Assembly (NCBI GenBank): GCA_046563655.1
Contig: CM102283.1
Coordinates: 3,968,001-4,032,000 of the forward strand
Reading direction: 5' to 3'
DNA: 64,000 nt
Source of the DNA: Yuukianura sp. NJ FZ-2021
Taxonomy: Eukaryota
The position numbers were made by a program, and so were the translations under genes. Under the pieces are notes generated by a model. That model was given only the letters and a program-made list of their open reading frames with translations. It was not told the origin of the DNA and searched no databases. Of this stretch, positions 2,583 to 64,000 are shown piece after piece (the first letter of the stretch is position 1; the number at the start of each line of letters is the position of its first letter).

Positions 2583-4199
2583 CTAACGACTGGAGTAGAT
2601 GAGTAGTTGCTTCCCTGCCAGTGCCATGAGTGCAGACTCTCCATGGATCCAGGCAATGTCCTGCACACTCTACAGCATCGGATAAACAATTAGTAATTGA
2701 CATTCAGTTCAATTAAAAGTTAAATTAAAAGTTAATGTTACCTCCCGCTTGGAAATCCAGATGGAGTTTTTGAAAGAAGTTTGGAATGTGCGTATTTCAG
2801 GACGTGGTCCCATGGTGGCTGTTGCAATTTCCTCTCTGTCTCGGCTGCTGAATTTAACAGAATGTGTTGGACCGCTGTGAGTTTCGATTCGTTTCCCACC
2901 AGCCCTAAAAATCCAATCAATTAATAATTGTTAATTAGTTCAAGTAGTTTGTGAATGTTACTCTGAGTTAAGGAGAGAGAGGTCGAAGAGATAGGCACAT
3001 TTGTTGACTCCGATGGCCACCAGTTGAGAATTGAGTGGTGCCCAGTCGGCTGAGAAGATGGGTTCCATGAGAGTGTTGATGGTGAAAATGGTAGTACGTT
3101 TGAGTGTGTTGCACATTCGAATGACACCGCACTGCTCAACCACCACCAGTTTGTAGGGCTCTGACCTGTGCCACAAACACTCAACTCCTGAAAATCAGAA
3201 AACAAACTAAGTCCACAATAAAAGTAGTGTATTTGTTGTATTTGTTCGTAACCTGGTGATTTGAGTCTAAATCGACACAGCTCCTTTCCATTGACATCCC
3301 ACACAATACATATTGGATCCTCATAAAGTGCTGCCAGCATGTCACCAGCCTCAGCATCAAACGACAAATGACGAACAGCCCCTGCCTCCCCTTCCAGCAT
3401 TCGAACCTACCAAGGACATAAAAATTGAAGATGTTTTTCCAAAAAGTAAATGTTGAACATTGTTATTGGTGACTTACATCTGCTGACTCCAAACTCTTGT
3501 TCTGAACAAGGCGTTCCCCTGCTGTTCTAACTTCTGTGACCATGTAGACCTTGGAGTCCTCGTTGAGTCCCAATGCATAACCTATCTTCTTCTCTCCGAG
3601 ATCTCCGAAGTGAGACGCAGGATTGAGTGAGAAGGCCACAATGGTTCGACCCATCTTGTGGTCGGAATTGGACACAACCATCTCCTGAATCTTGGTCACA
3701 CTCCACAGCTTCCCCTTTGGTGTCTGGAACAAAAGAAAGAAGAGTTGCATAAATGTCAAGAATGTTAAGGTAAGTGTGACTTGTGCTTACTGTTTTTGTG
3801 ATTTTGAAGAGACTGAGGCGTGTCTCAAACTGGATCCCAATGATATTGTTCCCCAGGTCGTGTTTGATGGTGGCCAGTGACACGGGGAGGTAGTTGAGTG
3901 GAAATGCTTGTGTTGGTTTGTAGTCGTTGAGATCCTGGGTGACGTTGAAGTGGTCCTTGGTTCCAGTGTGGTAATGGCTTCTTTCTGTCAGTGTCTCGTC
4001 ACCATTCAAAGTAGTATGATGTCTGAAGAAGGAGCTGTTTGTAGGGAGCGTGCGGTGTAGAGGTAGCCAGTCACCCTCTGAATCCAATCCAGTCACTTCT
4101 GTCATCTGCAAAACACAACAAATGTAATGCTAATTTAATTAACATCGAAGGGATTTTATGTTCTTTTACCTGCTCGGAGTCTTCCACCAAGACTTCCAT
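2583..4199 (-). CDS. Nup37: WD40 nucleoporin Nup37-like
   Basis: Multi-exon; first exon MEVLVEDSEQ at 4199-4170, TAG at 2585-2583. Segments LEGEAGAVRHLSFD...CIVWD...FRLKSPG, WHRSEPYKLVVVEQCGVIR and PIFSADWAPLNSQLV match my recollection of Nup37 (LEGHTDFINGLVFD...FVLHSPG, WHPEETFKLMVAEKNGTIR, PLMSAHW). The N-terminal half is divergent. Confidence 0.78.
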
Positions 4200-4823: not shown

Positions 4824-5153
4824 ATGAACTCGGCTGATACTGATGGAACTGCTGCTGCCGTAAGTGGACAGCTGTCAAACGACACGCTAACGACTCCTGT
4901 TCCAGCCCCAGCACCCATTCCAGCCTCCACACCAATTCTACCCACACCCAAACCACCAACCACACCAGTCATCTCCAAAGCAGACGAACGACAGCAAGGA
5001 CGATTGTGTCTAGGCAGTTTTGTAGCTGACCAAAGTGACAAAAACTCAACTGCAGAACACAAAAAGAGAATTGCTCTTCTCAGAAAAGAGGCCAAGAAGT
5101 TGGAACGCACTAACTGGCAGTACGACTCCATCGACAAGCTCCTAGGACGCTAA
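4824..5153 (+). CDS. APC16: Anaphase-promoting complex subunit 16-like small protein (109 aa)
   Basis: C-terminus RLCLGSFVADQ...HKKRIALLRKEAKKLERTNWQYDSIDKLLG resembles human ANAPC16 RFLCESVFSYQ...[33 protein letters not shown] (recalled alignment). Low-complexity N-terminus and similar length. Probable 5'UTR intron 4743-4810. Confidence 0.7.
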   Translation: MNSADTDGTAAAVSGQLSNDTLTTPVPAPAPIPASTPILPTPKPPTTPVISKADERQQGRLCLGSFVADQSDKNSTAEHKKRIALLRKEAKKLERTNWQYDSIDKLLGR

Positions 5154-6895: not shown

Positions 6896-9800
6896 TTACA
6901 TGTCTTCGTCACTTCCAGCAGACTCCTGGACTTCTTGGTAGTCCAGCTCCAGAGCAGCGATGTCCTCTCTCGCCTCAGAAAACTCACCTAAAACACAAAC
7001 AGTTAAAATCCAAACACAAGTTAATTAGTTAATTAATTGACTTGCCTTCTTCCATGCCCTCCCCCACGTACCAGTGCACAAAAGCTCTCTTTGCATACAT
7101 GAGATCAAACTTGTGGTCCAGTCGAGCCCAGGCCTCCATGATGGCTGTCGTGTTGGAGAGGCAGCACACTGCTCTTTGCACTTTGGCCAAATCACCACCT
7201 ACAATCCAAACTAAAAAGTAAGAGAGTGAAATGTGAGAGGTCAAAGGTCAAAGTGTGACCTGGGACGACAGTGGGTGGTTGGTAGTTGATGCCCACTTTG
7301 AATCCTGTGGGACACCAGTCCACAAACTGGACAGTTCTCTTCTGCTTGATGGCGGCTATGGCAGCATTCACGTCTTTCGGAACAACATCTCCACGATACA
7401 ACAGACACACCGCCATGTACTTTCCCTTACGCGGATCACACAGCACCATTTGCATCCTCAAATACAAACAACATTATATTCTCCATTTCCAAGTTTAACA
7501 ACCATCCTTAATTAATGTTAGGAATTAGGTTAGGTTAGGATAGGATAGGATAAATTAGTATAGGATAGGATAAATTAGGGTGGGATAGGTTAGGGTAGGA
7601 TAGGATAGGATAAATTAGGATAGAATAGGAAATAGGATAGGATAGGATAGAATAGCATAAATTAGGATAAAATAGGATAAATTAGGATTGGTTAGGATAG
7701 GATAGTAACCATTTGCATTCTGAAAACACAAACTGTTAAACGTGTTCATTTTAATTTAGACTCTTACGATGGATCGAAACAAGCCTTTGTGATTTCGTCT
7801 ACGCTGATCTGCTCATGGTACGCTTTTTCTGCTGACACAACAGGAGCAAAGGTCGCCTACAAAGAACAAAAAAACAAAAGTATATTTTGGAAAAAAGTAA
7901 ATTAGGAAATGTTGTGGCAATGCTGTGAATATGTTGTGACAATGTTGTGACAATGTTGTGACAATGTTGGGACAATGTTGTGAATACGTTGTGAGAATGT
8001 TGGGACAATGTTGTGACAATGTTGTGAGAATGTTGTGACAATGTTGGGACAATGTTGTGAATATGTTGTGAGAATGTTGTGACAATGTTGGGACAATGTT
8101 GTGACAATGTTGTGACAATGTTGTGACAATGTTGTGACAATGTTGGGACAATGTTGGGACAATGTTGTGAATATGTTGTGACAATGTTGGGACAATGTTG
8201 TGGCAATGTTGTGAATATGTTGTGAGAATGTTGTGACAATGTTGGGACAATGTTGTGAATACGTTGTGAGAATGTTGGGACAATGTTGTGAATGTTGTGA
8301 GAATGTTGTGACAATGTTGGGACAATGTTGTGAATATGTTGTGAGAATGTTGTGACAATGTTGGGACAATGTTGTGAGAATGTTGGGACAATGTTGTGAA
8401 TATGTTGTGACAATGTTGGGACAATGTTGTGGCAATGTTGTGAATATGTTGTGAGAATGTTGTGACAATGTTGTGACAATGTTGTGAATACGTTGTGAGA
8501 ATGTTGGGACAATGTTGTGACAATGTTGGGACAATGTTGGGACAATGTTGTGAATATGTTGTGAGAATGTTGTGACAATGTTGGGACAATGTTGTGACAA
8601 TGTTGGGACAATGTTGGGACAATGTTGTGACAATGTTGTGAATATGTTGTGACAATGTTGGGACAAAGTAGTAAATTATTAATTGGAAAATGTTACGAGA
8701 GGAAAGTGAATTCGTGGATAAGGAACCAAGTTGGTTTGGAATTCGTTCAAGTCCACATTGAGTGCTCCGTCGAAGCGCAGTGACGCTGTGATTGAAGAAA
8801 CCACTTGACCAATGAGGCGATTCAGATTCGTGTACGTCGGGCGCTCAATGTTCAAGTTTCGGTAGCATCTCAAAACAAAGTTCAAATTTTAAAAAGTCTC
8901 TCAGATTTTAAAATTTGTAAAAAGTTACAGCTCGTAGATGGCTTCATTGTCGACCATGAATGCGCAGTCGCAGTGTTCCAGAGTGGTGTGGGTGTAGAGG
9001 ATGGAGTTGTAGGGCTCAACAACAGAAGTGGACACCTCAAAGAAAGTTAAAAATAGTTAATTATGAATTAATTATTATAATTATATTAATTGAGTAGTTA
9101 CCCTTGGTGCTGGGTAGATGGAGAAGCAGAGTTTGGATTTCTTTCCATAGTCGACTGAGAGGCGTTCTTGAAGTAGAGATCCAAATCCGGATCCAGTTCC
9201 TCCTCCGAAAGAGTGAAAGATGAGGAATCCCTGGAGACCATGACACTGTTCTGCCATGCGTCTGATTCTGTCCAGAGTGAGGTCGATCACTTCCTTGCCA
9301 ATGGTGTAGTGCCCTCGGGCGTAGTTGTTGGCAGCATCCTCTTTCCACGTCACCAATTGCTCAGGGTGAAACAGTTGACGGTAAGTACCAGTCCGAATTT
9401 CATCTGAAAACAAACATTTCTCAAATTCATTCACCTTTTGGCATTTCCTCACTAATTCTAAGAAAAAAACAATTGTTTTCCAAAAATATTTTAGCCTTCC
9501 ACTTTTCTCCCAGTCTGTTTTGCATGTGTTGTAGCCACTTGGAAAAAGTTTTAGTTTTGCAGGAGAAAACTCTATCGATTGAAATTCGGGGAAAAGTCAA
9601 GTGGACTTGGACCACAAATTATTGATGTGAGTGACGCCTGTCCACTTTTCTACAAGACTTTGTCTCAAATCGAATCCAAAGTCTCATGAGGACAAGAGTG
9701 GAATTATTTTTAAAATAAGAATGGATTTAGTTAATTGATCATTGATGGTTGATGTTACCGACTACCGTTGGTTCCAAGTCGACAAAGATGGCCCTGGGTA

Positions 9801-11075
9801 CATGTTTTCCTGCACTCGTTTCTGCAAAGAACGTGTTGAAAGAGTCATCTTCTCCACCCAGAGTGTCGTCAGTTGGCATCATGCCATCAGGCTGGATTCC
9901 ATGCTCCAGGCAGTACAACTCCCAACAAGCATTTCCCATCTGCACTCCTAAATTCAGCATTCACTTTCAACTCAAATTTTAAATTTAAATTTTAGAAAAG
10001 TGGATGCTCACCAGCTTGTCCAATGTGGATGGACAGACATTCCCTCTGAACACAAAAAGAACGCTTTCAAATTCTCTGTAACTTCAATTTCAGCGTACTC
10101 TTGGACATCACAATTTCACAACTCACAAGTGAACCAAATATACAAAACGGCACCAGCACGACTAGTACTAAAAAAGCTGTAACAAGATTTTCCAAAAACT
10201 TTTGGCCGTATGACTTTAAGCAACTACAATTGAAAATTGGAAAATCTAAGTTTGATAAAATGATTAAATTTACTCTAGACTTCATGCCATAGTAGGCTTT
10301 GGGAGGTCGACTACTGAATCCACCTCCAAAGTTCATTTTAACCCTAACAACTAAAGCAACAGAGGAAGAGTGTGGAGGTCAAAGGTTAAATTTGGCCACT
10401 TTTAGTCTTGAATTGTGATTCGAGTGTGAATCGAAGGAAGACTGAGTTGGAGAAAAGTGAAAGTGGAAGAAAGTGGGAAGAGTTTTTGGGACGGAAGAAA
10501 ATGGCGGATTGAGTAGGTGGGAATTTGGAAATGATTGAAACACTAACACAACAAAAGAAACTAAAACACAACAAACAAGGCAAGGTTCCTAATCAAATGT
10601 AGTGAGAAAGTGAAGGAACTTTGCTCCTGGAAACTGTGTTGAAAGTGGAGAAAGCGACATGTGAGTAACATTGGAAAAAGGAAATGAATTTACGCTTTTG
10701 CCCCTCATGTTCCACAACCGAGTTCTTTAGTTCCCGACAAATATTTGACCCAAGGTCAATCTAAAATCCAGCGGAAATAAGTCTCCAGAGAGGTAATAAG
10801 TTATAGTCAATGTCCACAAAGAGAAATGTACTTAATAAAGTAATTAGGGTTAGCGGAAATAGGTCCTAGCCTTCTAATGCTTCCTCTCCAACTGTACAAC
10901 TTCTAATCCACTCTGCTGATCTGGAACAGGGGAATGGAAATGGAATAAAAGAAAGTCCACTAAAAAGTGAAAGGAGAAAGTAGTGGCCAGGTTTAAAAGT
11001 GGGCTAAATCCACCCACCTCCTCTACGCTTTTTCTACAAGTAAGTTTAACTAGGCCAAAACTAAAAGCTAACCAT
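6896..11075 (-). CDS. Divergent alpha-tubulin isotype (ATG exon at 11075-11073 tentative; firm from 10045)
   Basis: Exons 10045-10012, 9947-9759, 9403-9102, 9035-8929, 8868-8697, 7856-7768, 7456-7260, 7198-7046, 6987-6896. Motifs [57 protein letters not shown]. The frame is intact only with three GAG acceptors and one GC donor. Confidence 0.93.
7518..7706 (+). repeat. Degenerate pentamer satellite, (TTAGG)n grading into (ATAGG)n, inside a tubulin intron
   Basis: ttagg ttagg ttagg at 7525-7539, followed by atagg repeats interspersed with ataaa/ttagg variants. Confidence 0.9.
7908..8666 (+). repeat. 11-bp minisatellite (ACAATGTTGTG and variants), ~69 units, inside a tubulin intron
   Basis: Units acaatgttgtg / acaatgttggg / agaatgttgtg / aatatgttgtg / aatacgttgtg fill most of intron 8696-7857. 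Confidence 0.97.
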
Positions 11076-11671: not shown

Positions 11672-13137
11672 TTATGTTTTAGACAAAGCACTTCCAGTTT
11701 CCAGCACTGGACTTGTGTTTGCTGACGGTTGTTGGTTGATGCTTGCGTACAGCCGCCCTGGCGGTCGCTTTGGTTTCAGTAGTTTCCTACAGTCTAGATT
11801 TCCAGACAGTTTCTGAACAAGTTCTTTTCTTAATCTTCCAGATGCTTGGCTCTTTTTCTTGATCTTCGTCTCAACTCCAGTTGAATCTGAACTGTGCTTC
11901 AGCTTCATGTGACTTTGTAGTCGATGCTTCGAAATCAACAGAATCATTTTAAGTTATTAGTCTAACAGAATATATAATTCCTTTACCTTGCTAGAAAAAC
12001 TTTTACTACAAACAGAGCAAGATGGACGAGGAAACTGATCTGCCTGATGAACACTTCGCATGTGGTGGCGTAGGTTTTTATCAAAGTAGTAAGATCTGGA
12101 AGTTGAAAAACTAGAAATAATTACTTCAAATACTGAATAGAGACAATTAAAAACTGACTTATCACATCCCGTATAAGGACACCGGAAAATAGTTCTGCCG
12201 GGTGAGTGGACTTGCAAGTGACAGTTGAAATTCCCCAAGTCTCTGAACGATTTTCCACAAGTAGAACAAGTCAATGCTAACAAACAAAGAATTAAACTTA
12301 AAATTCAATGTTGTAACGAAATCTACTTTACCTGCTGTTTGCTTCTGTTGATGTTCAACTGTAGCTTTATGTTTAATTAGAGACTCCAAGTTTTCAAATT
12401 CCATATCACACAATTTGCACTTTCTGGTAGATTTGAAAGTTTCAGACTGGTGACGAGCCTCGTGCTTTTTCAAGTCTGATTCACGTCGAAAGACTCTTGA
12501 GCAACTGGAACACCTACGGCAAAAGTAAACATGAGACAGACACAAAAGTATTTGATTTGATGCTGTTTTACGTGAAACTGTGAGTGGTCATGTGTTGTTG
12601 GAGTTTGGAAATGCTTGGGAATTGTAGATCACATTGTTCGCACTTCAACGTCCCTTGTGGTTTTAGTTTGTGACCAAAGTGAGCCCTTCGGAAGTGTTGG
12701 TGGAGACTTTGGTTTGAGTGGAAACTAGCCACGCAGTCCTCTGCTCCACATCTGCAATTAAAAAAAACGTTTAGGAATCGACTGAATGAATGGATATCCT
12801 ACAGATCAGTTTGTTTTACCTGAATAAGCCCTGTTCCTTCCCATGTGAGATGGAGGTGTGTCTGGTGAGATGTTGTCTGCGTGTATATGCTGCAGAACAT
12901 CCCTCTACTTCACACTTGAACGGTCTCTGCAATCATAATTAACAGAGTAATTAACACTTTAGTCCTCACGTGATTAACAATTACTTTTTTGCTTACCGTT
13001 CCTGCATGGAGGAGTTGGTGAGCCTGGAAATTGGTCAGTTTGTTGAAACGCTGTCCACAATTGGGGTGATTGCACTGGAGCAAACTATCTTGTCCAACTT
13101 CTTGACAACCAGCGTCGTTGTCAACTGTTCCTACCAT
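11672..13137 (-). CDS. GTF3A: Transcription factor IIIA (nine C2H2 zinc fingers)
   Basis: The spliced product has nine fingers (CNHPNC, CEVEGC, CGAEDC, CEQC, CSSC, CKLC, CSTC, CPYTGC, CSVC). C-x4-C in fingers 1-3 and 8, HSPGRTIFRCPYTGCDKSYYFDKNLRHH and a basic C-terminal tail fit TFIIIA. Confidence 0.75.
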
Positions 13138-14067: not shown

Positions 14068-15370
14068 ATGAACATGTTCCAGTCAACAATCGTTGCATTT
14101 CTAATCCTACTTTTACTTTTTGTTTCCTTCAAATTATATTTAAAATTCTCAACCGTATTTTGCAAAAGTAGACGCCGATTAGATGGGTCCGTGGCAATCG
14201 TCACTGGATCCAACTCAGGTAAGCACAACTTTCATCAAAATTTTATAAACTGATTTCACTTTCTTCAAGAGATTTTTTGAAAAGCAGGGATTGGATTTGA
14301 AACTGCCAAGGATTTAGCACGTCGTGGAGCCAAAGTGATCCTAGCCTGTCGTGATGTTAAGAAAGCACAACTCGCTGCCGGTAGCAAAACTTTCTCCAAA
14401 ACTAAAAGTATTCTGTGCATAAAATTTCCTTTCTTTGAAGATGAAATTCGACGTGAGACGAGAAACCGTGCGGTGGCTGTGAAAAAACTGGACCTCAGTT
14501 CCATGGCGTCTGTTCGCTCTTTTTGTACTGAAATTTTGAAAGAAGAGAAGCGACTGGACATTTTAGTGAACAATGCTGGAGTGGCCTACACACAAAAAGT
14601 TACGACGGAAGATGGATTTGAAGGGCACTTTGCAACGAATCACTTGGGCCCATTCCTACTCACCAATCTACTACTAGGTAACAAAGTTTCATCCAAAATT
14701 CAAAATTTTTGAAAAGTACGATTTTTTTAAACTTCAGGCCTGATGATCAAGACTAAGAAGAGCAGAATTGTGAACCTCTCTTCACTAGTTCAAAGAAGTC
14801 CAAAGACTGTTGATTTTGAGAATTTGAATTCAGAAAAGGAGTATCATCCCAAACTGATTTATGGAAATACAAAGTTGTACAACGTTCTTTTCACAACTGA
14901 ACTGAGCAGACGCATTGAGGCAGCGGGACTGTTGAATTGCGTAACTGTTAACGCAGTGCATCCGGGAGTTGTGAAAACAGACATCTTCCGCCATGCCAAG
15001 AAAATCACAATGTACAGAATCCTCATCGGAATTATGGAGTCTTTCTTCATGGTAACTTTTCAATACTCAAATTTTAAATTGAAAAGCAATGGAAATTTTG
15101 ACTTTTGCCAATATTTAGACCGCGTTTGAAGGAGCACAAACCTCAATTTTCTTGGCAGTTTCAGAGGAAGTTGAGGGCATCAGTGGATTGTACTGGGCCC
15201 ATTGCAAGGTAAATTAAACACAACAAACACCAAACAACTCAATTTTCACAACTTCTGTATTTTAGAATGCAAAGATGAACAAACTGGCAGAAGATAAACA
15301 ACTGACACGAAAATTCTGGGACGCTAGTGCCAATTTTGTAAGACTTCAACCACAAGAATACCATTTGTAA
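14068..15370 (+). CDS. Retinol dehydrogenase 11/12/13/14-like SDR (paralog B)
   Basis: Exons 14068-14218, 14288-14380, 14441-14677, 14738-15051, 15119-15208, 15266-15370. TGSNSGIG, LVNNAG, catalytic YGNTK. Intron positions match paralog A. Confidence 0.93.
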
Positions 15371-15882: not shown

Positions 15883-17261
15883 ATGTCCATTAGTTCTTAT
15901 AGTGACTCTATCTCTTCATTTCGAAAACCTTTAGGCCACTTAATACCAAAATTCTCAGTGAGGAATTGCGTAACTGCAAAAGAGGATTCATCAGTGTCAA
16001 CTCGTGTCACGCTACTCAAGCCCACCAACCTCTCCAGCCAAATCCACTGGAGTGACTCTGACATCCCCACAACAGAACAAACCCACAAGGCAAAGCGAAA
16101 AGTAAAGCCCAATTCCACTATTTTCCTAAAAATCAATCTTCCAGAATCACTTTTTCAACCTTTTTACCAAAAATTCCAAATTTTTTTTAGTACTATCGAC
16201 ACAAGTCATCAAAGAATTCCAAGAAACTGGGCGATCGTGCCAGTGTTCCGGAAGACGCCTTTCGTCTCCCCAAAATTAGCCAGAGAAAGCAGAAAAGCAA
16301 AGGGACAAAATCAGTTACTTTCGCAAAACCGGTGTCAGTCCAGGGAATGCCCAAACCAAAGACTGCCGTGACCCCCACTTTGACCTCAACTTTCGACGAT
16401 TCCCGTGCCTACTCTTTCTACGTCGAAAACGAATACACTCGATTCACTTTGGAAATTCCAGAACCACCGCTCTCAGCATCAGCTTCTCCGCGTCGTGCGA
16501 CGAAGAAACAAGGCGTGTCTGCCATCCTGTCGCAGCGTCTGTTCCACCTCACGAAGCAACTGCGGAAATGTCACGTGGAGTACAACAACTTCCTGGAACT
16601 GGACGAGAGAGACACTTTCCTCACGAACGAGATTCTGCAGAGATATGTGATGGCCCTTGACCTCGCTCTCACAGAGGCCTACTTCGGCATTGCTCTGGAA
16701 ATTGTGTCCAAAATGTACGACTCCACGAAGCACATGATCCCCCTCTACGCAAACATCTTCTACGGAGTGGACGGGACGCATGCCCCTCTGCCCATCATGG
16801 TCACTGGAACCAATGACTTCTTAAAGTCCCTCACTCCCTTGATCTACGCCCTCAACAGAATCCCCTTCTCCAGCACCAGCCCAGACAAAAACGGACACTT
16901 ACGACTGGAGACTCATCTCATGAAGCTGCAACTAGAAGTGCTGGTGCTCGTCACTGCGCCTGTCCACTCGGCAGTGTTCAGAGCCACACTGGAAGTTGTT
17001 CCAAACACTGCGTTCACAGCCTACCAGCGTCTGGTGACGATGAACTTAGGACTGCTCAAGAGTAGTTTCCGGTGGGACAATGACTCTGTCATGAAGAAAG
17101 AGTATTCTGACATTCTGGAGAAGTTTGGCCTGGCAGATCAGTTGGGGTGCAAGGGGTCTCTGGCCACCATCAACCAAAACAACCAATCCAAATCCAGTCG
17201 TAGGGTCAACTGTGACTCGGAACTCGAAATGAGCGACGGAGAAAGCATCGACTTTCACTAA
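15883..17261 (+). CDS. Hypothetical protein (~429 aa), no recognised domain
   Basis: Exon 15883-16101 joins in phase 0 through GT-AG intron 16102-16190 to a 1071-nt open exon 16191-17261 with coding-like, C/G-ending codons. Basic low-complexity N-terminus, helical-looking C-terminal half. Start codon uncertain. Confidence 0.7.
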
Positions 17262-46036: not shown

Positions 46037-46714
46037 TTAGTCGTCTGGATGTTCTGGACAAATTCGGTTGACTCTCCACCAAGAGTCGATGCAGGCTTTG
46101 TGGTAAATGCATAAGCAGGGTAGCCGAGCAATTCGTTGTCCAGCTTCCATGTCGTCCAGACAAATCGGGCATTCCCCTTGTGTAGTCGTCAGGATATCCT
46201 CTGTCCAGACAATCAACAACTTAGAACTTAGTAATGAGAGTATTGTTGCTAAGGAACAGTTCCTTACCGTTGTAGTTGATGCGAGGTCGAGTGAGACACA
46301 TGACTAGATGAATTTCAACGTCATCTGGATTCACAGACTTGGAGCAAATGGGACACTTGACTGAAAACACAACACACTTTTCAGTTCAAGTGAAGATTTT
46401 TAAGAAGTAAACTCAATTGATAATTGGAGTTACCGACAAGCTGGAAACTGATGCGATCGCGGATCCATTCTGCGGGAGTTATGGTGGAGGAGGAGCGTGG
46501 ACGTATTTGAAACAATTGTGAGTTGTCTCCAGATTGCTGGGCAGGATTGAAGTTGGCTGAAACCAAAGAACAAATGAGGCAGGAAGTATGGAGTAATCGA
46601 TTAACTAACAGTTGTGATTAGATTACTTGGGTCGGGAGGGGTGTCGACTCCATCGTAGTGTCCAGTGGACGTTGTTCTCACTCTCGGCTGCATCGTTGAA
46701 GCTCTGGAGCCCAT
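46037..46714 (-). CDS. ZNRF2: E3 ubiquitin ligase ZNRF1/ZNRF2-like
   Basis: Exons 46714-46627, 46556-46434, 46360-46268, 46200-46037. MGSRAS myristoylation start, zinc finger KCPICSK...HLVMCLTRPRINYNED, RING-H2 ECPICLDD...ARLPCLCIYHKACIDSW...CPEHP. Confidence 0.93.
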
Positions 46715-50871: not shown

Positions 50872-52249
<1,378 letters not shown>

Positions 52250-53254: not shown

Positions 53255-55189
53255 TTAGTCAGAGACGGCGTCAAATTCACGCAGTAAGTTCCTGGAAGCA
53301 GGAGTCAGAGGATCCGCCTCTTCTTCACGATTAATTCGGTTGAATCTCCCAGTTCTGAAGCGACTACACAAAAAACAAAGTTAGCCACTTTCAAAAAGTT
53401 AGATTGAGCCTCACTTACGCACTACTCCTGGGGTTCGTCTTTGTTGCAGAAATTGGAGTGGAAGCGAAGACTGGAGTGGACGTTTTGGCAGGTCTGATAT
53501 CGTCATCTACAAAAATAGTTGAAAGGGTGAATTTAAACTGAGAAGATTTACGTTGTGACTTACCATCGGAGAAGGAGGAGTCGTTGACCTGGAGTTCGGG
53601 CGGCATGACGACGATTCTGTCTGGAGTGGACGAGCAGCGTTGCCGTTGAGGTGGATTGGGAACAGGTCCCCTTCTGCGTCTTCCGATGACAATGAGAGAG
53701 GCTAGGAAACAGATGATGGCATTCCATACCCTCTTTAACGCTCTCACTTTTGAGTCCAAATATGAAAAGAACATACTCCATTTTCGGCGTTTTACTCGCT
53801 TTATCACAGACGGCAGAGCAAGGAGAGTCGCAACTTCCGGTCGACGCTCAACATCCGATTCAAGCATCAAGCTCACCACTTCACGCAGGGAGTCAGGCAG
53901 AACTAAATACAAAACAAAAATTAACATCAACATCCGAATACTTGTCAATACTTCCAAAAAAGTGCTTACGTTCGTCACATGGAGGAGGGAGAATTCCAGT
54001 TCGTAGTTTGTGCCACAAGTCTCCGCTGTTTGGGAGATCCACGTGACAAGCAATCTCCACAATGACAATTCCGAGAGAAAAGACGTCTGCCTTGGTAGAA
54101 ACTCTGCCGTGGATGACCTCTGGAGCGAGGTACCTCGAGTCTCCTTCTGTGTACTCCGTCGGATGCAATTGCTAAGAACAAACATTTGCTCAATGTCAAC
54201 ATTAACTCATTTTCATAAGAAAAAGAAATTAACTCCTTGCTGTTCTGTGTTATTTACCGTCTCTTCCAGGCTGACAGCTATTCCGAAATCTGCCAGTTTG
54301 TACAACGTAGGAGGTTCTTTGGAGAGGAGAATGTTGTCAGTCTTGATGTCCATGTGGATGAGATGATGTTTGTGGAGATGGTACAAGGCTTGCAACATGT
54401 CAACCAACACATCCCATACCTGGAACAGATCAGTAATTAACAATTGACATTCACAATTTAATTGACATTATACTTACAATGGTTTCGTCCAGTTGATGCC
54501 CCTCCTCGATGTACTGGTTGAGTGACTTAGAACACAACTCCATTTGCAGAAACAGATGACCCTCCTCCTCCCATGCATTCTCAAAAGCTACCAAGTGATT
54601 GTGCGGCGGAATGCGGCAGATTCTTTGCACCTCCAGCAGTTGTCTCGATCTGAACAAGTGAATAAGTCAAAACGGAGTTTAATTTTGCATCACTTGTGCT
54701 TTACCTGTCAAAGTCTCCAGTGTAAGTTCTGCGTGATTTCTTGACGGCGTACTCTCTTCCAGTGGACTTGTTGATGCAGTGGTAAACATCACCAAAGGAC
54801 CCAAACCCAATGCGAGACTGAATTTGGAAAATGTCTTTGAAGATGGGTTCATTGCACTCTCCGCCTTTCAATTTCCCATTCTGCATCATTTGATGGAAGG
54901 AAGAGTCAAAGTCTGCTTTGGGGTCAGTGATCATTCTGGAATGGATGAGACGAGTGCGGGGCTGCGAAGATCCAGATCTGAGAGAGTGGTGAGGTCGGGG
55001 GGCAGGGGGCACATAGCGTAATTGCTTCCTGTCTCGGTCCTAAATTCAAACAAATCAATTAGAAAGCGGAATAGTCTTTAACAATGTTTGAGTAAAGTAG
55101 TTTACCTTCTTTGAGGACAGAATGACTGGTTCTGCAAAGAATTTGGGCATGTACACTCCACTGACGTTGAGCTCCCCATCGTCCGACAT
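53255..55189 (-). CDS. Myt1: Membrane-associated Tyr/Thr CDK1-inhibitory kinase Myt1
   Basis: IGFGSFGDV, YAVKKS, AWEEEGHLFLQMELC, HMDIKTDNI, KLADFG, EGDSRYLAPE, DLPNSGDLWHKLR; hydrophobic membrane segment after the kinase domain; C-terminal RNLL motif. Confidence 0.95.
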
Positions 55190-57187: not shown

Positions 57188-60100
57188 TTACCCACGTCCT
57201 CTGCCCCACTGATTGAGAAGTGGCCCATTCTTCGGTGCTTGGTTGCGACCTTGACCTGTTCCTACCACGACTGGCCCCACCGCTGGTGAGAGTGCCCCAC
57301 TTGGTGGCTGTTTGTTGGGGAAGTTGAGTTGTCTTTCCTTCTCCATCTCCCTCCAGAAGCAAATGAGTCTGGACAAGAGGGCAATGTCTTGTCCATTCCC
57401 GTTCCTCCGAGAAGTCCTGAGAGCCAGGACGGAAACTACTTTGCGCATGAGCTGCAAGTAGGATCTGTCCAGGTAGATCTGGACGTTGATTCCACCCATG
57501 GCCCCACTGGGACTGGGATTGGCAGCCAAGTTGATCTGGTCCCAGCAGTTGCACTTTGTCATGCTCTCACAAGAACGAGAAGTAGAACTGAAGTAAGTAT
57601 TTGGAGGACAGATGAATGACTTTGGACCAGCGGATGGTTGACAGGAGTAGTAGAATCTGGGATCACGATAGCCAAACACTCCTTCTCCTGCGCACACTCC
57701 TTCCCAAGGCAGGGCGTAGTTCCACTCGATTCCAGTTCCAGCACTTCTCTCTCTTCTGAACTCGGCTCCATTCCAAGTATACTTTTCATTCTTGTCTGTG
57801 CCCAGAAGATGATGAACGTAAGAGGCCACGCAGAATCCATGGTAGATGCTAAAGTAAAGATCATCCGGACATCGGTACAGGATCTCCTCGTACTTGTTCC
57901 CGTCGTCACTCTCGTCACTGTTCCTCTCCGGTTTGTCACTGATTTCATTGGAGTTGTCGTCTTCTCCACTCTCAAGTCCCAAAGGATTTTTAGGAATGCA
58001 GGCAAAGTAGAATCGGTAGTCTGGAGTGGGTTTGAATCCGGCAGAGGTGCATTGTGGCACTTCGAATTCAATTGCCTCCATGTCCACTTTGGTCCCAAAG
58101 ACAATTGCTGGATTGGTCACAACTTGGGGTGGGCCGACTGTCAGTTTAGAGAAGGAGGGTTTAGGAGAGGTGAGTAAATCTGGTCTGGACAGTTTGACAT
58201 TTGCGAGTCTGGCGAGATCCACTCTCATGTTGTAGCTGGTTCCAGTGAGAATGTACTCATGTTGGAATCCCGGAATGCAGGAGCCAGTACGTGGACTGAA
58301 GTAGAATCCAGAGTGACAAAGGAAGAGTTGTGTGATGAGTCCATTGGGTTGTTTGCTGGTGACGTAGTAATATCGAATGTCGTTGAGTGGATACTTTCCT
58401 TCCTTGTCTGAAACTGGAACGTGGAAAGGAACAGAACCAATCTGGACAGCAACTCCAGAGCGCAGATCCAACTTCCCTCGGATTGTCCAGTGTGTTCGGA
58501 CACCTTCCCAAGATGGAAAATACTACAAGAGAGGAACGATTTTAGTCAATTAGCAATTGGAAAAGTGTTAAATGTAAAACATATACCTGGTGACCGGAGA
58601 AGAATGATGATTTGGTGCATGCTTGGTAGATTGAGTTGTAGAAGAGGCCAGTGGGACATTGGAATAACTTGCGATCGAATGAATCCCTGGACCCTGCCAA
58701 GTGGTTGCACACAAAGTAGAATCTGTAGTCGGGATAAGCAAAGTGTCCAGGAGTGACACAGTCTGGAAGATTGAACATTGGCGATCCCTTCCCAACCACT
58801 TTGCCTGGACTCTTTTGCAGCGGATACTCTTGACGTTTTCTTCCAATTTCATAGCCAGACACACACTGACCCTTACTCGGAACAAAGTAGTAGCCATAAG
58901 GACACCGACTCAGTAAACCTAAATTCAAACAAAAAAGAAAACCACAATAAAATTAAACATGAACATAGTTATAAAAAATATGACAAAAATGATTTGTTAC
59001 CAGGAGCGGAAGAAGAGCATGAAATGTAGAATCGATCGTCCAATCCGAAGGGAAGAAGCCCTTGAGCAGAGCAATGGTTTGAAATGCCCGGGAACTGAGA
59101 GAGCGGGAAGTTGCAAGGAAGTCCCGGTTGGACAATGGATGACGCTGGTCCTGGACCCAGCCGAATGCCACTGTCGTCTCTGAGAATGGAGGACCCAGAA
59201 GAATGGACACAAGCACTGGCGTAGTGATTGAAGATGTAGTTGTGTCCACATGACTTCACTTGCGAAGTGTAGCCACCATTTCCATTTCCAGCACAGGAGA
59301 TAAACGTAGAAATATCGTCCGTAGCAAAGGCCCCTGGTCGCGAACACTTCCAGTTCGATTGATCTGTCACGCGACTCCCGAATGTCAAAATGGCACCAGA
59401 AAACGAAGAGTCTCGAGTACTAAAGAACTGGTCCATGAACGACTCACTGCTGAAATCCACAGAAGAAGACTGGACAACGGAGGATGTCTGGACACTGGAA
59501 TCGAAGGAAAACGTTTCTAGGAATGTCGTCATCGTTGTGAATACTGTCACGGTTTCAATTGTTTCTAAAAAGCTGCTCGAACTGGTTTCACTCACAGATG
59601 ATTCTGATTTGGAAGCATTAATTTCAGTGTTCTGCGATTGCGAGGAGTGGGAATTTGACATGGCTGAATTGGACTGTGACCTCTGCGAGGAAGCAGCAGC
59701 AGCTTGCGACGCCGCTGAACTTTGAGATAAAGAATTTGATCCTGTGAAACTGGCTGAATTGACTGCGTTGGAGTTGCTTAAGACTGAGCTGGACTGGGCA
59801 GCTTGAGCTTGAATTGCAGCAGTGCTAGAAAATGACCCTGACAGTGACTTCGCAACGGTGGCTTCAATCTGGGAGTTTTGCGTTGCTGATTGACTGGATT
59901 GAGACATCACTGAGCTTTGTCCTGCAGCGAGAGCTTGACTACTAACTGCTGAGGTAGCTACATGCGACGTAGCTGATGCGACCAACGAATTTCCCGCCGA
60001 TGAACGTTGATCACTCTTCAGAGCTTGGACTGTTGCACTTTGACTTTGAGCAGTCATTCCGGATTGTCCATGCATTGTACCAGAACTCACAGTTTTTCCC

Positions 60101-63100
60101 ATGGAATTCATCGCTCTTGATTGCATTTGAGCATTTTGGACTGCGGCACTACTTTGAGAAGCCATATTCTGAGCAGTCATTGCAGATTGTCCATGCATTG
60201 CTCCAGAACTCACAGTTTTTCCCATTGAATGTCCTACCATGGAATTCATCGCTGCTGATTGCATTTGAGCATTTTGGAGAGCTGCACCACTTTGAGCAGT
60301 CATTGCAGATTGTCCATGCATTGCACCAGAACTCACAGTTTTTCCCATTGAATGTCCTACCACGGAATTCATCGCTCCTGATTGCATTTGAGCATTTTGG
60401 ACAGCTGCACCACTTTGAGCAGCCATATTCTGAGCAGTCATTGCAGATTGTCCATGCATTGCTCCAGAAGTCACAGTTTGTCCCATTGCAGCTCCTGCCA
60501 TGGAATTCATCCCTCTTGATTGCATTTGAGCATTTTGGACAGCTGCACCACTTTGAGCAGCCATATTCTGAGCAGTCATTGCAGATTGTCCATGCATTGC
60601 TCCAGAACTCACAGTTTGTCCCATTGCAGCTCCTGCCATGGAATTCATCCCTCTTGATTGCATTTGAGCATTTTGGACAGCTGCACCACTTTGAGCAGCT
60701 ATATTCTGAGCAGTCATTGCAGATTGTCCATGCATTGCACCAGAACTCACAGTTTGTCCCATTGAAGCTCCCGCCATGGAATTCATTGCTCTTGATTGCA
60801 TTTGAGCATTTTGGACAGCCGCACCACTTTGAGCAGCCATATTCTGAGCAGTCATTGCAGATTGTCCATGCATTGCACCAGAACTCACAGTTTGTCCCAT
60901 CGAAGCTCCCGCCATGGAATTCATCCCTCTTGATTGCATTTGAGCATTTTGGACAGCTGCACCACTTTGAGCAGTCATTCCGGATTGTCCATGCATTGCT
61001 CCAGAACTCACAGTTTGTCCCATTGAAGCTCCAGCCATGGAATTCATTGCTCTTGATTGCAGTTGAGCATTTTGGACTGCGGCACCACTTTGAGCAGCCA
61101 TATTCTGAGCAGTCATTGCAGATTGTCCATGCATTGCACCAGAACTCACAGTTTGTCCCATTGAAGCTCCCGCCATGGAATTCATTGCTCTTGATTGCAT
61201 TTGAGCATTTTGGACAGATGCACCACTTTGAGCAGCCATATTCTGAGCAGTCATTGCAGATTGTCCATGCATTGCACCAGAACTCACAGTTTTTCCCATT
61301 GAAGCTCCCGCCATGGAATTCATTGCTCTTGATTGCATTTGAGCATTTTGGACAGATGCACCACTTTGAGCAGCCATATTCTGAGCAGTCATTGCAGATT
61401 GTCCATGCATTGCTCCAGAAGTCACAGTTTGTCCCATTGCAGCTCCTGCCATGGAATTCATCGCTCTTGATTGCATTTGAGCATTTTGGACAGCTGCACC
61501 ACTTTGAGCAGCCATATTCTGAGCAGTCATTGCAGATTGTCCATGCATTGCTCCAGAAGTCACAGTTTGTCCCATTGCAGCTCCTGCCATGGAATTCATC
61601 CCTCTTGATTGCATTTGAGCATTTTGGACAGCTGCACCACTTTGAGCAGCCATATTCTGAGCAGTCATTGCAGATTGTCCATGCATTGCTCCAGAACTCA
61701 CAGTTTGTCCCATTGCAGCTCCTGCCATGGAATTCATCCCTCTTGATTGCATTTGAGCATTTTGGACAGCTGCACCACTTTGAGCAGCTATATTCTGAGC
61801 AGTCATTGCAGATTGTCTATGCATTGCACCAGAACTCACAGTTTTTCCCATTGAAGCTCCCGCCATGGAATTCATTGCTTTTGATTGCATCTGAGCATTT
61901 TGGACTGCGGCACCACTTTGAGCAGTCATTGCAGATTGTCCATGCATTGCACCAGAACTCACAGTTTGTCCCATCGAAGCTCCCGCCATGGAATTCATTG
62001 CTTTTGATTGCATCTGAGCATTTTGGACTGCGGCACCACTTTGAGCAGTCATTGCAGATTGTCCATGCATTGCACCAGAACTCACAGTTTGTCCCATTGA
62101 AGCTCCCGCCATGGAATTCATTGCTTTTGATTGCATTTGAGCATTTTGGACTGCGGCACCACTTTGAGCAGCCATATTCTGAGCAGTCATTGCAGATTGT
62201 CCATGCATTGCTCCAGAACTCACAGTTTGTCCCATTGAAGCTCCCGCCATGGAATTCATCCCTCTTGATTGCATTTGAGCATTTTGGACAGCTGCACCAC
62301 TTTGAGCAGCCATATTCTGAGCAGTCATTGCAGATTGTCCATGCATTGCTCCAGAACTCACAGTTTTTCCCATTGAAGCTCCCGCCATGGAATTCATTGC
62401 TCTTGATTGCATTTGAGCATTTTGGACAGATGCACCACTTTGAGCAGCCATATTCTGAGCAGTCATTGCAGATTGTCCATGCATTGCACCAGAACTCACA
62501 GTTTTTCCCATTGAAGCTCCTGCCATGGAATTCATCGCTCTTGATTGCATTTGAGCATTTTGGATAGCTGCACCACTTTGAGCAGCCATATTCTGAGCAG
62601 TCATTGCAGATTGTCCATGCATTGCTCCAGAACTCACAGTTTGTCCCATTGAAGCTCCAGCCATGGAATTCATTGCTCTTGATTGCATTTTAGCATTTTG
62701 GACAGATGCACCACTTTGAGCAGCCATATTCTGAGCAGTCATTGCAGATTGTCCATGCATTGCTCCAGAACTCACAGTTTGTCCCATTGCAGCTCCTGCC
62801 ATGGAATTCATCCCTCTTGATTGCATTTGAGCATTTTGGACAGCTGCACCACTTTGAGCAGCCATATTCTGAGCAGTCATTGCAGATTGTCCATGCATTG
62901 CTCCAGAAGTCACAGTTTGTCCCATTGCAGCTCCTGCCATGGAATTCATCCCTCTTGATTGCATTTGAGCATTTTGGACTGCGGCACCACTTTGAGAAGC
63001 CATATTCTGAGCAGTCATTGCAGATTGTCCATGCATTGCTCCAGAACTCACAGTTTGTCCCATTGAAGCTCCTGCCATGGAATTCATCCCTCTTGATTGC

Positions 63101-64000
63101 ATTTGAGCATTTTGGACAGATGCACCACCTTGAGCAGTCATTGCAGATTGTCCATGCATTGCACCAGAACTCACAGTTTGTCCCATGGAAGCTCCCGCCA
63201 TGGAATTCATTGCTTTTGATTGCATCTGAGCATTTTGGACTGCGGCACCACTTTGAGCAGTCATTGCAGATTGTCCATGCATTGCTCCAGAACTCACAGT
63301 TTGTCCCATCGAAGCTCCCGCCATGGAATTCATCCCTCTTGATTGCATTTGAGCATTTTGGACAGCTGCACCACTTTGAGAAGCCATATTATGAGCAGTA
63401 ATTCCGGATTGTCCATGCATTGCTCCAGAACTCACAGTTTGTCCCATTGCAGCTCCTGCCATGGAATTCATCCCTCTTGATTGCATTTGAGCATTTTGGA
63501 CAGCTGCACCACTTTGAGAAGCCATATTATGAGCAGTAATTCCGGATTGTCCATGCATTGCTCCAGAACTCACAGTTTGTCCCATGGAAGCTCCCGCCAT
63601 GGAATTCATTGCCTTTGATTGCATTTGAGCATTTTGGACTGCGGCACCACTTTGAGCAGTCATTGCAGATTGTCCATGCATTGCACCAGAACTCACAGTT
63701 TTTCCCATTGAAGCTCCCGCCATGGAATTCATTGCCTTTGATTGCATTTGAGCATTTTGGACTGCGGCACTACTTTGAGCAGTCATTGCAGATTGTCCAT
63801 GCATTGCTCCAGAACTCACAGTTTTTCCCATTGAAGCTCCCGCAATGGAATTCATTGCTTTTGATTGCATTTGAGCATTTTGTACTGCGGCACCACTTTG
63901 AGCAGCCATATTCTGAGCAGTCATTGCAGATTGTCCATGCATTGCTCCAGAACTCACAGTTTGTCCCATTGAAGCTCCAGCCATGGAATTCATTGCTCCT
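57188..64000 (-). CDS. Giant repetitive protein (partial; N-terminus beyond window): Met/Ala/Gln/Ser/Gly repeats, Ser-rich linker, six ChtBD2/peritrophin-A-like modules
   Basis: Exons >=64000-59001, 58918-58587 and 58522-57188 join in frame through GT-AG introns. Modules of the form C-x3-G..D.RFY..C..CP.G.YF...C, e.g. CVTPGHFAYPDYRFYFVC...FQCPTGLFYNSIYQAC and CAGEGVFGYRDPRFYYSC...FICPPNTYFSSTSRSC. Confidence 0.88.
60047..64000 (-). repeat. Coding tandem repeat of 138-bp (46 aa) and 123-bp (41 aa) units, ~30 copies in the window
   Basis: Consensus MNSMAGASMGQTVSSGAMHGQSAMTAQ[NMAAQ]SGAAVQNAQMQSRA; length variants are multiples of 3 and the ORF stays open. Confidence 0.97.

Follow-up and report, generated by a model that had tools for sequence, protein, structure and literature searches.

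We analysed 64,000 nucleotides (nt) of contig CM102283.1 (positions 3,968,001 to 4,032,000; assembly GCA_046563655.1) from Yuukianura sp. NJ FZ-2021, referred to below as the window, which carry on the minus strand a divergent alpha-tubulin gene with three introns that end in GAG. Nine coding exons, spanning 10045..6896, join into a single open frame of 444 codons closed by a stop; codons 2–445 are open, the 1335 coding bases contain neither a stop nor a frameshift, and each of the eight introns begins with GT or GC and ends with AG (Table 1). The original prediction had singled out four junctions in this gene, namely TTTGAG acceptors at 9036, 8869 and 7457 and a GCAAGT donor at 7045, and all four lie where it had placed them. 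It had also noted that the first GAG intron (9101..9036) holds no other AG, and a single AG is indeed present there. The gene goes beyond the range 6988..9101 that it marked, reaching upstream to 10045, and has at least eight introns, including intron 8 at 7259..7199.

The junctions were examined by enumerating all pairs of GT or GC with AG that leave both flanking exon frames open. In all three introns GAG was the sole acceptor that kept the frame; the other pairs change only the donor and remove conserved exon sequence. The earlier argument that intron 7045..6988 must start with GCAAGT was borne out by the same enumeration, since the only in-frame GT donor (7195) would remove the entire preceding exon, and the other GC donor option, at 7057, costs four conserved codons. 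An in-frame TAG at 7211, 12 nt upstream of the 7199 acceptor, would make an intron of 49 nt and was not taken as an acceptor because this is below the 55-nt floor for introns in the window. The GAG introns fit the U2 type, with a GT start, an AG end, a pyrimidine tract and a length inside the range of the other introns. A U12-type intron would start with RTATCCTT and have a branch site similar to TCCTTAAC; this type was ruled out, the three donors being GTAACT, GTAACT and GTAAGA, and inspection of the sequence also ruled out shifted non-canonical boundaries.

To place these acceptors against a local background, we traced 46 introns manually in a further 13 genes (a Myt1-like kinase, a TRAM-like gene, a zinc-finger gene, three short-chain dehydrogenases, and RING, RCC1-like, WD-like, forkhead, mucin-like and SARNP-like genes, together with an unnamed open reading frame (ORF)), giving 54 with the eight of the tubulin gene; all 54 were checked by script for GT or GC, AG and open flanks. 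The acceptors outside the tubulin gene comprise 24 TAG, 20 CAG, two AAG and no GAG, so that 44 of 46 have a pyrimidine before the AG (YAG) and the only two that do not are AAG, precisely at 14440 and 11927, as had been claimed. Those of the tubulin gene comprise four TAG, one CAG and three GAG. GAG is the rarest acceptor class in the window (3/54), and all of its members belong to one gene. Fisher's exact test gave p=0.0023 for 3/8 versus 0/46 and p=0.0032 for 3/9, when the acceptor at 10046 was counted. A YAG alternative is missing from just five of the 54 introns: the two with AAG (11927 and 14440) and the three tubulin introns with GAG. The local enrichment of GAG acceptors in the tubulin gene is real, within a small, manually curated set drawn from a single 64-kb window. 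The traced introns are short, 65.5 nt at the median, with a sharp lower limit of 55 nt; only five introns exceed 150 nt, three of them in the tubulin gene, and donors are mostly GTAAG, GTAAA or GTAAC.

In 18 of the 46 other introns there is an in-frame GAG 3–45 nt downstream of the chosen YAG, which the ORF alone cannot exclude. A dynamic-programming chain of exons recovered the short introns but also joined neighbouring genes, and picked in-frame GAGs at 54644, 51347 and 48343; the first two were ruled out by homologues, which leaves 48343 as a candidate. Of these two, the one in the kinase gene was ruled out by alignment with solved Myt1 structures and the one in the TRAM-like gene by four springtail-type homologues. 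An AAG acceptor at 46220 was likewise dropped in favour of CAG at 46201, on the reading frame of the RING domain. Two unsupervised intron scans by ORF chaining were dominated by false pairs, with decoy dinucleotides scoring as many matches. As a plain hexamer, TTTGAG occurs 162 times in the window against about 100 expected; the excess is due to a minus-strand coding tandem repeat of the mucin-like gene at 59.7–64 kb, and the hexamer is not otherwise enriched.

The surroundings of the three GAG sites were compared with those of the other acceptors by a leave-one-out score based only on the flanks (positions −20..−4 and +1..+3). By this score they rank 10, 14 and 15 of 54 (9.46, 8.72 and 8.35, versus a median of 5.42, and of −7.1 for random AG sites); one of the two AAG acceptors outside the tubulin gene is also strong-flanked (rank 11). 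Positions −9..−4 of the GAG sites contain five, five and four T out of six, and +1 is a purine in all three. The nearest other AG is at least 24 nt upstream and the next in-frame AG at least 21 nt downstream. Sequences resembling branch sites (TTAAC, TGAAC, ATAAT) lie 12–19 nt upstream of the GAG ends, and the DNA is free of competing AGs from these motifs to the exon and for 21–31 nt into it.

Intron positions were also compared with those of 79 tubulin loci from metagenome contigs. Four other, distinct tubulin genes (L038, L049, L055 and L065/L066) have a CAG-ending intron exactly where GAG intron 1 lies (phase 0, codons 176/177), which fits a −3 substitution in an old intron. None of the 79 loci has an intron where GAG introns 2 and 3 lie, at codons 212 and 299.

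The GC donor at 7045 had been presented as a further peculiarity of the gene, which our tally does not support: GC donors occur in two of the 54 introns, and the second has the backing of homologues. It belongs to a 66-nt GC-AG intron of the TRAM-like gene (51077-51142, minus strand, GCAACT...gttgCAG), where the GT alternative would insert ten residues that none of the four aligned homologues possesses; a 36-nt GT intron at this place was dropped for the GC donor on the evidence of springtail homologues. The best named matches of the TRAM exon are from Orchesella dallaii (76%) and Folsomia candida (69%), both of springtail genera, and transcript-derived proteins reach 87%. These matches mark the genome as springtail-like (Collembola) and speak against a nematode origin, to which tubulin motifs and the TTTCAG acceptors had seemed to point. 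The tubulin intron is an ordinary GC-AG intron. Its donor reads aag/GCAAGT, with consensus bases at the remaining positions, and differs in nothing notable from GC-AG introns generally; GC 5' sites make up about 1% of human introns according to PMC3167603.

The predicted protein is recognisably alpha-tubulin. Among Pfam families, PF00091 (Tubulin/FtsZ GTPase domain) matched the exon ORFs with 95.6 and 44.9 bits (cut-off 33) and PF03953 (tubulin C-terminal domain) with 95.2 bits (cut-off 26.6), and the best 60 of 170 matches in a PDB search were all named alpha chains, with E values of 8e-56 and weaker. Over 434 residues aligned with a panel of 93 alpha-tubulins, identity ranged from 57 to 88%, with a maximum of 87.6%, and 245 of the 258 columns with at least 97% conservation in that panel are kept. 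The C-terminal tail is short and does not end in the customary aromatic residue, and a residue other than lysine occupies position 40; this bears on whether the isotype is canonical, and family membership is unaffected. Canonical alpha-tubulin has an acetylated lysine at position 40 and an acidic tail that ends in an aromatic residue. Some 55 replacements without a stop, a frameshift or the loss of a splice dinucleotide would argue against neutral decay, and the gene is most likely a functional, or very recently functional, fast-evolving alpha-tubulin isotype.

Table 1. Parts of the alpha-tubulin gene and associated repeats in the window (a slash marks an exon–intron boundary).
Feature	Position	Strand	Details
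Coding exon 2 (codons 2-13)	10012..10045	-	Preceding acceptor gtgttCAG at 10046
Intron, 64 nt	9948..10011	-	GTGAGC...gaatTTAG
Coding exon 3 (codons 13-76)	9759..9947	-	Pfam Tubulin match
Intron, 355 nt	9404..9758	-	GTAACA...gttttCAG; codon 76, phase 1
Coding exon 4 (codons 76-176)	9102..9403	-	Matches alpha-tubulin chains in solved structures, E ~1e-55
GAG intron 1, 66 nt	9036..9101	-	15% G+C; GTAACT...ctttcTTTGAG/gtgtcc; phase 0 between codons 176/177
Coding exon 5 (codons 177-212)	8929..9035	-	
GAG intron 2, 60 nt	8869..8928	-	GTAACT...tttgtTTTGAG/A, end ctttgtTTTGAG/atgcta; codon 212, phase 2
Coding exon 6 (codons 212-269)	8697..8868	-	
Intron, 840 nt	7857..8696	-	GTAACA...ctttgTAG; contains tandem array
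Tandem array of 11-nt unit	7908-8666		69 copies, 85% matches; most of the 840-nt intron
Coding exon 7 (codons 270-299)	7768..7856	-	
GAG intron 3, 311 nt	7457..7767	-	GTAAGA...tttgtaTTTGAG/gatgca; codon 299, phase 2
Decoy duplicate of acceptor region	7708..7733	-	Consensus acceptor gtgttttCAG ending at 7720
Degenerate pentamer array	7526..7705		TAGGA on + strand, TTAGG in places; separates the acceptor copies
Coding exon 8 (codons 299-365)	7260..7456	-	Pfam Tubulin_C match
Intron 8, 61 nt	7199..7259	-	GTCACA...gattgTAG
Coding exon 9 (codons 365-416)	7046..7198	-	
GC-AG intron, 58 nt	6988..7045	-	aag/GCAAGT...gttTTAG
Last coding exon (codons 416-445)	6896..6987	-	Stop TAA at 6898-6896

GAG intron 3 contains a feature that the original prediction had overlooked, a second copy of its own acceptor region. 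Its 26 bases match the last 13 bases of the intron and the first 12 of exon 8, with 22 identities and one gap, and none of 2000 shuffles reached the score of this alignment. Splicing to the copy, within which a consensus acceptor ends at 7720, would produce an intron of 48 nt and a stop after nine codons. With no intron below 55 nt among the 54 traced, this decoy, 48 nt from the donor, may be out of reach. The two acceptor copies enclose the pentamer array, a few units of which are TTAGG, the arthropod telomere repeat motif; an array between two 25-nt direct repeats of an intron–exon border suggests an insertion that duplicated a long target site.

Given the uniqueness of the junctions, the conserved columns that are kept and the strength of the GAG flanks, we favour the reading, with a probability of about 0.55, that this is a most likely functional, divergent alpha-tubulin gene with three weak yet usable GAG acceptors that derive from tolerated substitutions at −3. 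Most likely, each GAG end arose by a single substitution at −3 of a normal U2-type acceptor, and these would be tolerated because of the T-rich tract, the purine at +1, the branch-like motif and the lack of a competing AG. The spliceosome would take the sole AG on offer, probably at lower efficiency; 3' splice-site efficiency declines in the order CAG > UAG > AAG > GAG, as given in PMC11802449. The clustering in one gene would then reflect a paralogue expressed weakly or in a restricted way, in which selection for efficient splicing is relaxed, and is not a demonstrated regulatory device. We infer the use of the GAG sites, the order of the mutations and the level of expression; a search of the literature on springtail splice sites returned nothing relevant among the matches listed.

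Several observations weigh against this reading. The one-codon ATG exon expected upstream could not be placed, there being just two ATG/GT candidates, at 11075 and 11453, whose donors are weak. Under plain relaxation it is an odd coincidence that a single gene should have acquired three substitutions of one kind, and the duplicated acceptor has its strong copy upstream and its weak copy downstream, the opposite of what would be expected under selection for productive splicing. Thirteen of the 258 highly conserved columns are altered, versus a panel median of 0, with radical changes among them (G95W, R214Y, K304L and K430L). No orthologue was found: the best match to the exon 4 protein was 87% among the 120 listed of 7905, and isotype-specific peptide patterns gave at best 86% among the 79 loci in metagenome contigs, and TRAM relatives at 87% do occur in the sources that were searched. 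Several of these observations are what a young unprocessed pseudogene or dying paralogue would present, in which the GAG ends, satellites and radical replacements would be early decay. The 13 departures at conserved columns, the loss of the usual C-terminal residue, the change at the lysine-40 position, the unlocated ATG exon, the satellite arrays in two introns, the decoy acceptor and the lack of an orthologue or transcript-derived relative above 87% among the matches listed would all fit. We nevertheless consider decay unlikely: the frame of 444 codons is intact, all eight introns retain GT or GC and AG, 245 of 258 conserved columns are kept, and the GAG sites outscore the median acceptor in their flanks. 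Decay that struck only the −3 position of three acceptors and spared 1335 coding bases would presumably be rare.

The same cluster could potentially be a splicing gate of the kind that the original prediction had proposed. By default splicing would be unproductive (introns retained, or the 7720 decoy used to give a premature stop), and a full message would be made only in a cell type with relaxed or blocked 3' splice-site recognition, such as the germ line or one sex. This would account for three GAG acceptors in the tubulin gene versus none of 46 elsewhere and for the duplicated consensus acceptor inside GAG intron 3, beyond which only nine codons would be read before a stop. The isotype is divergent, and tissue-limited tubulins often are. 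Reports on transformer (PMC5488161) and on the Caenorhabditis elegans germ line (PMC4484395) provide precedents. Set against this, a 48-nt decoy intron would be shorter than every one of the 54 traced (minimum 55 nt) and is perhaps unusable, and flanks above the median without a competing AG have the look of constitutive weak sites; a gate is quite improbable in our estimation. An equally doubtful proposal is that GAG accounts for a few per cent of acceptors genome-wide and that this gene is merely the extreme of a scan of very many windows. Finding none in 46 bounds the background at no more than 6.3% (95%), at which three or more in nine acceptors has a probability of 0.016; AAG at two of 46 sites indicates that −3 is not strictly a pyrimidine, and the case was picked post hoc from a very large scan. 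At a background of 0.5–2%, however, the probability per gene falls to between 1e-5 and 6e-4, the in-frame GAG options of the other genes all lie downstream of a usable YAG, and both of those tested with homologues were rejected. Errors of sequencing or assembly at the three −3 positions are very improbable, since they would require three independent miscalls of the same kind exactly at −3 in a gene that is otherwise clean and without a frame error, and the GAG sites lie outside homopolymer runs of G or C.

Other features of the window were recorded in passing. Paralogous short-chain dehydrogenase genes share intron positions, 14381-14440 (+) and 823-881 (−), of which one ends in AAG (14440) and the other in CAG (823). 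Tandem acceptors of the NAGNAG type, 3 nt apart, are found at 3188 (ttttCAGGAG) and 14287 (aaAAGCAG) and could give one-codon variants. The zinc-finger gene has a 63-nt intron (12096-12158, minus strand, GTCAGT...ttcCAG) that is in frame and stop-free, so that its retention would add 21 residues inside a finger. On the plus strand, 16 nt separate the stop of a small ORF at 4825-5153 from the ATG that opens the RCC1-like gene (5170 onward), and the two may form a bicistronic or tightly packed pair. The mucin-like exon (57191-64000, minus strand) exceeds 1600 codons and runs beyond the end of the window; it has tandem repeats of about 138 nt and peritrophin-A chitin-binding domains, and its opposite strand is open for 864 codons. 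No Rfam family reached its gathering score in the window, no close relative emerged from a search with the forkhead gene, and the Atlas gave no usable match for the ORF at 16191-17258.

As it stands, the finding is a verified curiosity and not a new mechanism. If the GAG junctions are constitutive, they would be a natural example of relaxation at −3 given a good tract, a favourable +1 base and no competing AG, and a warning, as gene predictors would break this gene. If they are used only in some cells, they would form a compact natural model of 3' splice-site regulation beyond the fly and worm cases. Either way the divergent isotype is worth attention in springtail transcriptomes.

Drosophila has divergent maternal and testis alpha-tubulin isotypes that are limited to these tissues. 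Like such tissue-limited animal isotypes, the protein predicted here is a full-length alpha-tubulin, more divergent than the canonical form and with an altered C-terminal tail. Like the weak GAG sites of U2-type introns described in PMC11802449, the acceptors here have G at −3, a T-rich tract before it and a purine as the first exon base; they differ from weak GAG sites generally in that three fall in one gene of eight introns and have the hexamer TTTGAG in common. In the germ line of C. elegans, non-consensus 3' sites are in use, which according to Ragle et al. (2015; PMC4484395) are adjacent pairs no more than 18 nt apart, of which the proximal site is taken, without a pyrimidine tract. This is a precedent for differences between tissues in the choice of intron end; unlike those sites, each tubulin GAG site follows a good T-tract and stands without a neighbouring partner, and the organism is a hexapod.

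The closest parallel in layout is with Drosophila transformer, in which, according to PMC5488161, use of a proximal strong 3' site leads to a premature stop and use of a distal weak site leads to protein, with Sex-lethal competing with U2AF. GAG intron 3 is similar in that a consensus acceptor upstream leads to a stop and a weaker acceptor downstream to an open frame. It is dissimilar in that the 48 nt between donor and proximal site fall short of the shortest traced intron (55 nt), and in that the two sites look like a recent duplication and not a conserved pair. This transformer-like layout, as read off the DNA, is one feature that would favour a gate, and, were the gate true, it would amount to a transformer-like switch on a cytoskeletal gene in an early-branching hexapod.

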